Shown: positions 4,433 to 7,900, numbered from the stretch's first letter. The stretch: 7,900 nucleotides of DNA from Escherichia coli (GCF_003334255.1 NZ_QOWU01000093.1); one strand, 5' to 3'. Notes: generated by a model from the letters alone, not told the origin. A program made the numbers and translations.

Positions 4433-4969
4433 ATGAGTACGCGTATTTATTTGTGGCGGGCGCTTTTTGGCGAAAAACCTCGTATCTTGCTGGAAAATAG
4501 TGATTTTACTGTCACGTCTTTTCGCTATGACAGTGGTGTCGAGGGGCTTAAAATTGCAAACAGTCGTGGACATTTAATTATTCTTCCCTGGATGGGGCAG
4601 ATGATTTGGGATGCGCAATTTGATGGACACAGTCTCACCATGTGCAATATGTTTCGCCAGCCTAAACCGGCGACAGAGGTGATAGAAACCTATGGCTGTT
4701 TTGCCTTTCATTCAGGTTTGCTGGCTAATGGCTGCCCATCTGCGGAAGATACTCATCTGCTACACGGTGAAATGGCCTGTGCCGCGATGGATGAAGCATG
4801 GATGGAATTAGAGGGAGATATGTGACGCCTTACCGGGCGTTACGAGTATGTAAAGGGATTCGGGCATCATTATCTGGCTCAGCCAGCAGTGGTCCTTCAC
4901 AAATCCTCTACACTGTTCGATATTAAGATGGCCGTAACCAATCTGGCTTCTGTAGATATGCCACTACAA
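4433..4969 (+). pseudogene. deoX: deoX-like gene (putative aldose-1-epimerase/mutarotase-like), disrupted by an in-frame TGA at 4823-4825 and 3'-truncated by the IS66-family terminus
   Basis: ATG 4433 with SD AGGAG overlaps the deoP stop (translational coupling). The 130-aa ORF ends at TGA, but the same frame stays open for 48 more codons (RLTGRYEYVKGFGHHYLAQPAVVLHKSSTLFDIKMAVTNLASVDMPLQ) up to stops that overlap GTAAGCG at 4970-4975. HLLHGE and VTN...P segments loosely resemble aldose-epimerase-family proteins such as YphB; that family assignment is tentative. Confidence 0.55.
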
Positions 4970-5001
4970 TAGTAAGCGGCTCGCCAGAACCGTCTTAATA
5001 T

Positions 5002-5183
5002 TTACTGAGAGCTCAGATCAACTTTCCAGGGCAACAGATCGCGTACCCGATTTGCCGGCCAGTCCTGGATATGTTCAATGACGTAACGCAGCCATTTTTC
5101 TGGCTCTACATTGTTCAGACGGCATGTGCCGATCAGCGAGTACAACACCGCCGCATGTTCGCCACCGCTGTCGGAACCCGCGA
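5002..5183 (-). CDS. tnpC: IS66-family transposase TnpC, 3' exon (C-terminal 60 aa: (F)AGSDSGGEHAAVLYSLIGTCRLNNVEPEKWLRYVIEHIQDWPANRVRDLLPWKVDLSSQ)
   Basis: Hand translation of the minus strand. It joins in frame to the upstream exon across the proposed intron, using T at 7008 plus TC at 5183-5182 to form the Phe codon. It is not in the ORF track because it has no start codon of its own. Confidence 0.75.
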
Positions 5184-5186
5184 GTC

Positions 5187-5222
5187 GAGTCAGCCGGAGA
5201 GAATTTCACTCCCCGGCTGCTC
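5187..5222 (-). ncRNA. Group II intron domain VI with bulged branch-point adenosine (plus 5190, 7 nt from the 3' splice site)
   Basis: Minus strand GAGCAGCCGGGGAG / loop UGAAAUU / CUCUCCGGCUG-A-CUC forms a 14-bp helix with one bulged A, followed by GAC and then the exon. Confidence 0.6.
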
Positions 5223-5225
5223 ACG

Positions 5226-5259
5226 GAACCGTACGTGACACTCTCGCGTCATACGGCTC
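5226..5259 (-). ncRNA. Group II intron domain V (catalytic hairpin)
   Basis: Minus strand GAGCCGUAUGACGCGAGAGUGUCACGUACGGUUC: 34 nt with the AGC triad at positions 2-4, a 2-nt bulge on the 3' strand, a GAGA (GNRA) tetraloop and G-U wobbles at the canonical places. It starts 4 nt after the IEP stop. Confidence 0.88.
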
Positions 5260-5263
5260 TTGA

Positions 5264-6496
5264 TCACTCATTCGATGCACGTAGTAAATACCAGTGGACA
5301 AATAGCTTCGGATACTCCTTCCTTACCAGCGTCAGCTTTCGCTGAGCCCTCCGGTTCGAAAGTCTGTATTTAGACTGCATCCACTTGAGCAGACGTGACT
5401 GCATTGCACTCCACAGTCGATAGTTGAAATTTCTGGACCAGAACTTTCCGTAGTACTCGATCCAGCCTCTCACTATCGCATTGTAGCGCCTCGCAAAATC
5501 CAGCAAACTCTCAGCTGTTGAGCGATGTATACGCCACTTCTTGATTGTTTCTGTTATTTTGCGCATTGCTGCATTTGACGCACCCGGCATGCATTTTCGG
5601 TACAGTTCGCCTTTGAAATTCTTCAGCGTACGCACTTTGAAGTCATATCCGAGAAAGGTGAAACTCGTTGCGACGTTTCTCCTTTTAAACGTGTCAATGT
5701 AGGCGATATTCGTTTTCCCTGCATTCAGGACCAGCCCGACTTCCGAGAAGCGCTCCGATAACCTGTTCTTCAGCCTTGTTGCATCACTCATTCGTGAACA
5801 ATGTACTACAATATCATCAGCGTACCTCTCAAACGGTACCCCCCGATATTCTCTTTCCATCCACAAATCAAATGCATAGTGAAGGAACAAGTTAGCAAGT
5901 AGCGGACTAATGACCCCGCCCTGCGGAGTGCCTCGTGTTCGGGTTATTAATTCTCCATTTTCACAACTCTGCATTGGTGCTTCCATCCAGCGTCGACAGT
6001 ACAGGATGACCCATTTAGGCATCCCGTGGTGTTCCAGTGCTTTGAGCACCAGATCATGTCTCACATGGTCGAAAAACGCACTGATGTCCACTTCCAGTAT
6101 CCAGCTATAACGCCAGCACCGGATGGCACATTGTTTCAGAGCGTCATGAGCTGATTTGCCTGGTCGGTAACCATAAGAATCAGCATGGAAAATCGGGTCA
6201 AGCTTTTCTTCCATAAAAAGTTTTATCGCTCCCTGAGCAATTCGATCGGATACTGTTGGGATCCCCAGAATGCGCTCCTTGCCATTCGGCTTCGGGATCC
6301 GTTTTTCCAGCACAGGTGGCGGAAACCATGTTCCCGAACATAGCCGGTTCCAGATCTTGTATAGATTGCCATCACGTTGCTGGTCGAACATTTTCAAAGT
6401 CTGTCCGTCGCATCCGGGGGCTCCCTTGTTGCGACGCACATCCAGATATGATGCCCAGACCAGTGCTTTTGGTATTTCGAATGATTTTCGTTGCAT
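5264..6496 (-). CDS. Group II intron-encoded reverse transcriptase/maturase (410 aa; RT domains 0-7 plus X/maturase domain, no recognisable C-terminal DNA-binding/endonuclease extension)
   Basis: RT motifs are present: NKGAPGCDG (RT0), GIPTVSDRIAQ, YGYRPGKSAHDAL, TPQGGVISPLLANL and YADD (plus 5813-5824). The maturase motif RGWIEYYG follows. ATG start at 6494-6496; the reading frame is intact. Confidence 0.92.
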   Translation of the reverse strand: MQRKSFEIPKALVWASYLDVRRNKGAPGCDGQTLKMFDQQRDGNLYKIWNRLCSGTWFPPPVLEKRIPKPNGKERILGIPTVSDRIAQGAIKLFMEEKLDPIFHADSYGYRPGKSAHDALKQCAIRCWRYSWILEVDISAFFDHVRHDLVLKALEHHGMPKWVILYCRRWMEAPMQSCENGELITRTRGTPQGGVISPLLANLFLHYAFDLWMEREYRGVPFERYADDIVVHCSRMSDATRLKNRLSERFSEVGLVLNAGKTNIAYIDTFKRRNVATSFTFLGYDFKVRTLKNFKGELYRKCMPGASNAAMRKITETIKKWRIHRSTAESLLDFARRYNAIVRGWIEYYGKFWSRNFNYRLWSAMQSRLLKWMQSKYRLSNRRAQRKLTLVRKEYPKLFVHWYLLRASNE

Positions 6497-7007
6497 CAGT
6501 TACATCATCCCCTTATGGGTTGTGTCTTTTGCAATGAATGTGATCCCCATCCCTTCGCTCCAGACCCATTACAGATCTTTCATCACTACTACGAATGGGT
6601 CCGCCCCTGTTTCCCGATACGTGCCGGAAACAGGTTCTCACGTTCCCTGAGATGGTCTGGCCCGGGATCCTGCTGCCTTAACACCGGATGCCGCGCAGTC
6701 AGTAAGCAGGTGTCTTCTGCGCTTATCAGAGGACGGCTGTACGGCCCCATTTTGACATCATCTAAGATTTCGATGCTTCATCGGACAGTTTACTTTCGTT
6801 CAGCTTCCCGAACCCCACGTGACAGTAGATCTCTGCCTTTTCCCGAGTCGCTCACCACTACATTCCTTAGAATGAAGCAGCACCGGGTCGTTTGGTCAGT
6901 GTTCCTGCAAACCCTGACCGGAGGGCCCACCTCCACCCACCTCAGAGCATGGATAACTTATGCTGCAATTTTCATATTGCCGCTATCAGTTCTCCTTCGT
7001 GACACAC
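6497..7007 (-). ncRNA. Group II intron domains I-III (and the start of IV), 5' ribozyme portion
   Basis: Position and length fit, being about 0.5 kb between the 5' GUGUG and the IEP start. The internal secondary structure was not resolved by eye. Confidence 0.55.
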
Positions 7008-7823
7008 ACAACCAGTTCTTCCGGCCCACGGCCACACCCCGTAAGGCGTTCTCTGCGATGTTGTTGTCGATTTCCACCCAGCCATTGCTGCAGTACACGT
7101 TCAGGGCCTCCCACTGTTTCAGCAGGTATGCGAACGCTTTCGCCGTATCCGAGTGACGCGACAGGGTTTTCATCTTTTCACGCAGCCAGCTTTCCAGGGA
7201 TTTCAGCAGCGGTTTCGTTTTCAACTGACGTTCGGCAAGGCGCTGCTCCGCCGTCATTCCCCTTATCTCTGCCTCGATGGCGTACAGTTCGCCGATCCGT
7301 TTCAGCGCTTCCTCCGTCAGGGCTGACGGGGTGCGAACGTGCACATCGTGGATTTTACGGCGGGCGTGAGCCCAGCAGGCGGCTTCCGTTATCCGGCCAT
7401 CCCGGTACAGCTCGTTGAACCCGGCGTATGCATCCGCCTGCAGTACACCACTGAACCCCGCAAGATGGGTCTGCGGATGGATGCCTTTTCTGTCCGGGCT
7501 GTAAGCGAACCACACCGCCGGCGCCAGCGTTGACCCGGCGTTACGGTCGTCACGAACGTAGGTCCATAACCGCCCGGTCTTCGTTTTCTTATTGCCTGGC
7601 AACAGCACCGGGACAGGCGTGTCATCAGCATGGAGCTTACCGTCAGTCAGCACATAGTCCTGAAGCGCTTCTTCCAGCGGTGACAGTAGCCGGCAGCATG
7701 CATCCACCCAGCCCGACAGCAGTGAACGACTCAGCTCCACACCTTGCCGGCCGTATATTTCTGACTGGCGATACAGCGGGGTGTGCTCTGCATACTTCGA
7801 GGTCAACACGCGGGCCAGCAGCC
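7008..7823 (-). CDS. tnpC: IS66-family transposase TnpC, 5' exon (central region, N-terminally truncated)
   Basis: Translation ...[34 protein letters not shown]...[20 protein letters not shown] matches the IS66 TnpC pattern. ORF-track entry 6958..7809 is this frame reading 16 codons into the intron before a stop. No IS66-like coding continues beyond 7823. Confidence 0.75.
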
Positions 7824-7900
7824 CATAAGCGCTAACTTAAGGGTTGTGGTATTACGCCTGATATGATTTAACGTGCCGATGAATTACTCTCACGATAACT
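7824..7900. mobile_element. Probable IS186-like (IS4-family) terminal region abutting and truncating the IS66-family tnpC
   Basis: CATAAGCGCTAACTTAAGGGTTG at 7824-7846 matches my recollection of the IS186 terminal inverted repeat. It is preceded by a GC-rich stretch (GCGGGCCAGCAGCC), in keeping with the GC-rich targets I recall for IS186. The tnpC frame hits a stop at 7837-7839. This rests on memory only. Confidence 0.45.

Follow-up and report, generated by a model that had tools for sequence, protein, structure and literature searches.

The subject of this analysis is a group II intron of 1824 nt in a 7,900-nt stretch of Escherichia coli DNA (NZ_QOWU01000093.1, hereafter the window), inserted in the transposase gene tnpC of an IS66-family insertion sequence (IS). 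We are confident that it is a full-length copy of E.c.I3, a class D mobile intron with a fixed homing site in IS66-family tnpC genes of Escherichia and Shigella. E.c.I3 was reportedly first described by Dai and Zimmerly in 2002, and its original source was presumably plasmid pB171. We take IS679 to be an element of the IS66 family (after Han et al., 2001). According to Leclercq and Cordaux (2012, PMC3522654), IS679 is the specific target of E.c.I3, fragments of E.c.I3 are found on the Shigella virulence plasmid, and the E.c.I3 copies belong to class D (their Table S2). An earlier reading of the window from its bases alone (the sequence-only reading) had left open whether the intron was a catalogued one. 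It is, and there is no novelty in the element itself, which is already known, carries annotation in numerous genomes, and lies at a known homing site.

More distant relatives are the Sinorhizobium introns RmInt1, RmInt2 and Sr.md.I1, which like E.c.I3 encode a protein with reverse transcriptase (RT) and maturase (X) domains but without DNA-binding and endonuclease (D/En) domains, have a IIB-type ribozyme, and home into IS elements (PMC4615759). They recognise their targets through the exon-binding sites (EBS) EBS1, a 5-nt EBS2 and EBS3, and their splicing and mobility have been demonstrated (PMC4615759), whereas for E.c.I3 both are inferred. Sr.md.I1 of Sinorhizobium medicae and Pa.de.I1 of Paracoccus denitrificans, both class D, lie within the open reading frames (ORFs) of IS66 transposases, as does the intron in the window (PMC3552965, Table S1; PMC4615759). 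At the DNA level only short ribozyme and RT segments of the rhizobial introns can be aligned with it, at 70–88% identity, and the target sequence differs; one S. medicae relative is a fragmentary copy outside any IS66 gene.

E.c.I9, a class D intron in an Rhs-associated IS of E. coli ATCC 8739, encodes a protein that is 44% identical to that of the window over its full length. Both proteins carry a C-terminal extension ending in LFxHW (...YPKLFVHW in one and ...LELFAHW in the other), and the two introns are conserved in their J2/3–domain III and domain V sequences. E.c.I9 differs in its homing site, an H-repeat/ISAs1-type element, and in its larger domain II.

Identity of the intron

Coordinates below are those of the whole window, with the intron and its host tnpC read on the minus strand. 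The intron occupies 5184–7007. The copy in E. coli 536 (NC_008253, 4007952–4009775) is 98.0% identical to it over 1824/1824 nt, and has the same length, the same IS66-family (IS679-type) tnpC site and the same 410-residue RT-X protein. The 536 coordinates are listed as E.c.I3-2b, with 99% identity to the database reference (Leclercq and Cordaux, 2012, Table S3), and the naming rule of the database is more than 95% nucleotide identity to the reference intron (PMC3552965). The name given here, which also agrees with the IS66-family tnpC host, rests on the alignment to the E.c.I3-2b copy. The approximately 2% divergence from the 536 copy includes six clustered changes at intron positions 17–33, and position 269, discussed below, is C in the window and G in 536.

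The copy on plasmid pSD1_197 of Shigella dysenteriae is 98.4% identical to the window over intron positions 37–1824 and ends exactly at 29397, which is the stated boundary of Sh.dy.I1, a class D intron in Table S1 of Toro and Martinez-Abarca (2013, PMC3552965). The Shigella copies (pSD1_197 and pWR501) lack the first 36 nt together with the 5′ exon, and have a +1 frameshift and an ORF shortened to 375–392 residues, whereas the window copy is complete. The intron is assigned to class D by sequence identity: two compilations, independent of each other, place near-identical copies (Sh.dy.I1 and E.c.I3) in that class, and its protein resembles that of E.c.I9.

Boundaries and ribozyme structure

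Both ends of the intron can be read directly. From 7007 it starts with GUGUGUCACG, whose first five bases (7003–7007) are the 5′ splice-site consensus GUGUG, and it ends at 5184 with ...CUCGAC. Its termini, GUGUG...GAC, are thus those of a group II intron (5′ GUGYG, 3′ AY). Excision of 5184–7007 fuses ...GRKNWL with FAGSDSGGE...LSSQ* in frame and gives a normal TnpC C-terminus. When the ligated 511-nt sequence was searched against complete E. coli genomes, the uninterrupted IS66-family (ISCro1-type) tnpC of plasmid NZ_CP027334 differed from it by 1 mismatch in 379 nt, with zero mismatches within 30 nt on either side of the junction, ...CTGGTTGT/TCGCGG. This comparison confirms the position of the GUGUG as well. 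The boundaries cannot slide, because the flanking bases differ at both ends: the last intron base is C and the last base of the 5′ exon is T, while the first intron base is G and the first base of the 3′ exon is T.

Two Rfam models match the intron, both well above their gathering scores. RF00029 (domains V and VI) aligns over its full length with 5261–5184, scoring 57.1 bits (E = 1.7e-9; gathering score 40), as is characteristic of a group II ribozyme. RF01999 (group-II-D1D4-2) identifies a domain I segment at 6818–6934, with 93.4 bits (E = 1.2e-18) and the model complete from position 1 to 118. Domain V (5226–5259), delimited by the RF00029 alignment and by direct reading, is 34 nt long and has the sequence GAGCCGUAUGACGC-GAGA-GUGUCACGUACGGUUC; it contains the AGC triad and the AC bulge, and is capped by a GAGA tetraloop of the GNRA type. 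In the domain VI helix (5187–5222), drawn from the same alignment and by manual pairing, the branch-point A is bulged; it lies at 5190 and is nucleotide 7 counted from the 3′ end. These hallmarks are not attributable to chance.

The minimum free energy fold of intron positions 1–511 contains in addition a 6-bp helix between positions 2–7 and 482–487, which is considered a folding artefact.

Intron-encoded protein

The intron-encoded protein (IEP) is specified by an unbroken ORF of 410 codons at 5264–6496, which lies in domain IV, between domain III and domain V, and has its stop codon 4 nt ahead of domain V. It matches the NCBIfam model TIGR04416 with 394.7 bits (cutoff 300) over model positions 2–352 of 353. 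Pfam identifies RVT_1 at residues 67–285 and GIIM at residues 311–385. The protein therefore has the make-up of a group II RT/maturase, with RT0–7, the YADD motif and the maturase X domain, encoded in domain IV. No nuclease domain, HNH or other, was found in the IEP with Pfam or NCBIfam, and the protein stops 25 residues past GIIM; the lack of DNA-binding and endonuclease domains is as expected for class D. Exactly the same 410-residue protein occurs on 732 public contigs, under the name 'group II intron reverse transcriptase/maturase [Escherichia coli]'.

Most of this anatomy had been proposed in the sequence-only reading, and it held up well. The GUGUG start, the 34-nt domain V with its GNRA loop, the bulged A of domain VI at 7 nt from the 3′ end, the RT/maturase ORF stopping 4 nt before domain V, the absence of an endonuclease domain, and the insertion in an IS66-family transposase gene with an in-frame GRKNWL/FAGSDSGGE join were all found at the positions that it had given. 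A covariance model (RF00029) now places domains V and VI at 5184–5261, and the uninterrupted tnpC of NZ_CP027334 agrees with the predicted ligated exons, so that the coordinates are exact.

Two further features of the coding region are of minor interest. At intron 500–508 (6500–6508, minus strand), 3 nt ahead of the IEP start codon, there is a mini-ORF, AUG AUG UAA, created by a T at intron 504 (C in other lineages) in the presumed Shine-Dalgarno/domain IVa region. On the plus strand, at 6256–6650 and 6491–7156, there are ORFs of 93, 126 and 221 residues antisense to domains I–IV, the longest of which crosses the intron/exon boundary. The NCBI Prokaryotic Genome Annotation Pipeline (PGAP) annotates their equivalents in other genomes as (frameshifted) 'hypothetical protein', the one in pWR501 being WP_227804374.1. 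We regard these ORFs as almost certainly spurious.

Exon recognition and homing site

Within intron positions 1–510, the best pairing for the last seven bases of the 5′ exon, UGGUUGU, is with 5′-ACAGCCG-3′ at intron 268–274 (6734–6740), at −7.8 kcal/mol. We identify this segment as EBS1. It forms 7 bp, including 2 G·U pairs, with exon positions −7 to −1 (the intron-binding site IBS1, 7008–7014), which provides domain I with an exon-binding sequence complementary to the 5′ exon, and it fits expectation because it lies in an 11-nt hairpin loop. Different copies of the intron covary at this point: those of 536 and E. coli D8 have G269 with C at exon −2, while those of the window, pSCU-106-1, SW071611 and two further loci (L011 and L012) have C269 with G at −2. 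This looks like a compensatory pair, and gives suggestive rather than strong support to EBS1.

A candidate EBS2 is UCUU at intron 241–244 (6764–6767), in the hairpin loop GAAAUCUUA, which can pair with AAGA at exon −13 to −10 (candidate IBS2, 7017–7020). The pairing leaves a 2-nt linker, as in RmInt2, and the homologous loop of E.c.I9 (UCCU) is complementary to GGGA in the exon of E.c.I9 itself. Of the exon-binding sites that the sequence-only reading had expected to pair with the 5′ exon, EBS1 has thus been located, and EBS2 is placed only tentatively.

The 5′ junction lies at the same position in all the copies examined (9/9), after AA(A/G)AACTGG(C/T)T(G/C)T. The homing site in tnpC is therefore after ...AAR AAC TGG YTS T, within the conserved G-R-K-N-W-L-F motif. 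Variants of the −25/+10 target site in the IS66 family are GGAAGAACTGGTTGT/TCGCGG, GGAAAAACTGGCTGT and GGAAAAACTGGCTCT.

Integrity and probable recent mobility

The window copy has an intact ORF and no indel relative to five other copies. The copies elsewhere include several that are damaged: that of D8 has deletions of 10 nt and 2 nt, that of pWR501 has the loss and frameshift noted above, and that of L011 has a stop codon in the ORF. There are 13 differences between the ORFs of the window and 536, of which 8 are synonymous and 5 nonsynonymous, a pattern that reads as more conservative than neutral drift would give. The six substitutions at intron 17–33 leave hairpins of similar stability in the two lineages, with different parts of the stem extended. 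Judged by these features, the window copy has probably kept its competence as an intron.

The introns of the window and of pSCU-106-1 are 100% identical, yet their 5′ exons are only 75% identical. Similarly, SW071611 has a 99.9% identical intron in a tnpC that is 82% identical to the window host; for other hosts the figure is 73–78%. Because the same intron is found in tnpC hosts of only 75–82% identity, it would appear to have homed recently into different members of the family, and recent retrohoming is the best explanation for near-identical introns in such divergent elements. Recombination between intron copies could also have put identical introns into divergent hosts.

It is possible, although we rate it somewhat below an even chance, that these copies represent an E.c.I3 sub-lineage that is currently spreading, with introns that are identical or differ by one base in IS66-family tnpC genes differing by 18–25%. 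If this is true, the target of about 15 nt, which encodes the conserved KNWLF, could open all IS66-family elements of E. coli to colonisation by the intron, beyond IS679, and the homologous intron copies might drive recombination among otherwise unrelated IS66 members. An apparently very recent mobility among divergent IS66-family hosts in E. coli is of modest interest at the population level, and is the only mildly new point about the intron.

The steps of this mobility are modelled on RmInt1, RmInt2 and Sr.md.I1, while the anatomy and family membership of the intron are seen directly. The mechanism of class D introns without endonuclease has been described, and in these three introns retrohoming is endonuclease-independent and biased to the lagging-strand template (PMC4615759). 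By analogy, the intron RNA would fold in the tnpC transcript with the help of its own maturase, and would recognise the 5′ exon through the EBS1/IBS1 pairing (intron 268–274 with exon −7 to −1) and a short EBS2/IBS2 pairing. Splicing would proceed by branching at the bulged A (5190), leaving a lariat bound to the IEP. Because the IEP has no endonuclease, the resulting ribonucleoprotein is expected to reverse-splice at replication forks into the single-stranded DNA of empty IS66-family sites, with nascent lagging-strand DNA as the primer for cDNA synthesis. Its apparent recent mobility would make the intron a reasonable natural system for the study of endonuclease-independent retrohoming in a genetically tractable host.

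Host element

The 5′ exon (7008–7824, minus strand) encodes approximately residues 192–463 of TnpC, as seen from translation and blastp, and the 3′ exon (5002–5183, minus strand), translated in frame as FAGSDSGGE...LSSQ*, provides the final 59 codons and the stop. Together they give a protein with 80% identity (blastp) to a 523-residue ISCro1-type TnpC over residues 192–523. Next to the 3′ exon is a terminal inverted-repeat end (4972–5001, minus strand) reading GTAAGCG... on the plus strand, which we take to be an IS66-family end motif; the alignment with E. coli D8 breaks here, at 4971/4972. At the other side, 7825–7900 (plus strand) is an end of IS186/IS421, an IS4-family element, inserted in tnpC. 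It agrees at 76/76 positions with thousands of copies that bear the annotation 'IS4-like element IS421 family transposase', and all alignments of the IS66 part end at 7824, which puts the breakpoint at 7824/7825 (±1), about 820 nt upstream of the intron. No complete IS66 element (tnpA-tnpB-tnpC with both terminal repeats) is present in the window, where the contiguous part is the 3′ 64% of tnpC and the one end at 4972. The host IS is defunct at this locus.

The locus is thus a three-level nest, with the intron inside an IS66-family element that has itself also been struck by IS186. The reverse nesting is found on the pINV plasmid of the enteroinvasive E. coli (EIEC) strain RMDEC465, where a second E.c.I3 copy (34774–40646 of that locus) is split by a complete IS66-family element (tnpA-tnpB-tnpC). 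Six places on that plasmid match the intron.

The host tnpC has a mosaic appearance. Identity to an ISCro1-type element (locus L005) is 99.7% across the ~168 nt that lead up to the intron and the entire 3′ exon, so that the host is ISCro1-like at its 3′ end. Farther upstream the identity to the same element drops, to about 80% overall, the segment next to IS186 shows 92% identity with an ISEc8-type fragment, and the upstream part is only 73–82% identical to the other hosts. Such a mosaic may have arisen by recombination among IS66-family members.

Alternative interpretations

Several observations weigh against reading the window copy as an intact and active E.c.I3. Its splice competence is deduced from the intactness of its sequence. 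A 7-bp stem near the 5′ end pairs perfectly in the 536 lineage but contains two mismatches in the window lineage, where an alternative helix is longer. With IS186/IS421 inserted upstream, the intron may be cut off from the tnpC promoter. As regards exon recognition, two copies on the EIEC pINV plasmid combine C269 with C at −2, a mismatch in EBS1, and the EBS2 pairing has only 4 bp, with a second 4-bp candidate, GUUC, at intron 195–198. UCUU is tentatively preferred over GUUC, as it sits in a hairpin loop and E.c.I9 has an analogous one. Finally, PGAP flags the identical gene in other genomes, as ltrA, as a pseudogene, 'incomplete, missing N-terminus'. We do not take this as a sign of a damaged ORF, since the match to TIGR04416 begins at model position 2 and includes RT0, and a complete protein with the same 410 residues has been deposited. 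We judge the flag to be an annotation artefact, attributable to the reference protein used by PGAP.

One alternative proposal is that of a dead relic: the copy would be complete in structure but inactive in catalysis or translation, and carried passively on a genomic island in a broken IS. The setting would suit such a relic: IS186/IS421 cuts the host tnpC, the IS adjoins a deletion, and one 5′ stem is weakened in this lineage. It would also be the common fate, as many E.c.I3 copies are degenerate (pWR501, D8, L011) and Leclercq and Cordaux (2012) argue that most enterobacterial intron copies have been inactivated or lost. However, the ORF is intact with its YADD, the whole intron has zero indels relative to the 536 copy, the substitutions in the ORF are skewed to synonymous ones, and an identical sequence in at least three IS66-family hosts that are mutually 75–82% identical is hard to explain without recent mobility. 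We therefore consider a relic rather unlikely, and continue to regard the window copy as a probably competent E.c.I3.

A second proposal gives the intron a working regulatory role towards its host IS, with transposase made only after splicing and transposition thereby coupled or throttled. The insertion is in frame in a conserved TnpC motif, exact splicing would restore the ORF, and the intron-bearing ISs of pSCU-106-1 and SW071611 have retained tnpA and tnpB along with the upstream portion of tnpC. The sequence-only reading had gone in this direction, proposing that splicing restores a full TnpC C-terminus and that IS66 transposition could depend on it. The C-terminus would indeed be restored at the in-frame junction, but not a transposase: only residues 192–523 are present, and splicing cannot yield transposase here because the IS186/IS421 end also cuts tnpC. 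That second cut, at 7824/7825, makes dependence a moot question here. Where the host is intact, as in pSCU-106-1, splicing-dependent transposition would be reasonable in principle. Against a regulatory function, the targeting of ISs is usually read as a safe-haven strategy of the intron and not as a function for the host (PMC3522654), and no sign of regulation is seen in the sequence. Such a role is improbable.

That the window holds some other RT element resembling class D (a retron, a defence-associated RT (DRT), an Abi-type RT, or an intron of another class such as IIC or class E), as weak matches of the IEP to Drt3a, the retron St85 RT and Drt2 might suggest, is refuted by the Rfam, TIGR04416 and class D evidence, since those matches are far below their cutoffs (for example 77 against 200 bits) while TIGR04416 is above its own, the intron has domains I, V and VI of the ribozyme, and the near-identical copies are class D in both compilations.

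The main value of identifying the window intron as E.c.I3 lies in its annotation, which should be that of a class D group II intron in a disrupted IS66-family tnpC. Current pipelines give instead a series of pseudogenes, labelled 'ltrA, missing N-terminus' and 'transposase domain-containing protein', with an antisense 'hypothetical protein' among them.

Distribution

A megablast search with the intron found E.c.I3 matches in 167 of 5426 complete E. coli genomes, of which 56 have at least 80% coverage, and in 271 plasmid records, chiefly Shigella/EIEC virulence plasmids and E. coli plasmids. The 100% identical copy is on pSCU-106-1, an IncI1-type plasmid, and several isolates of wastewater and clinical origin carry chromosomal copies with 99.9% identity. 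E. coli ED1a (NC_011745) has two E.c.I3 copies. None of the complete RefSeq genomes spans the entire window; the best match has 90% coverage at 95% identity.

Neighbouring sequence

Adjacent to the IS66-family end (4972) is an aldose 1-epimerase-family gene (4433–4971), which has a premature stop at 4823–4825 and is truncated at that end. Relative to E. coli D8, about 3.4 kb is gone beside the IS, comprising DoxX, a hypothetical gene and an isochorismatase pseudogene. The alignments that flank the deletion overlap by 8 bp (CTACAATA; 4964–4972 in the window, 7245–7252 and 10615–10622 in locus L007), which suggests that the deletion was mediated by microhomology. Farther away, an rbsK-like sugar kinase gene contains a 15-bp in-frame tandem duplication at 2949–2978 (two copies of GCCGCTTTGAAAAAA), which adds AALKK and makes the gene 936 nt long, compared with 921 nt in D8.

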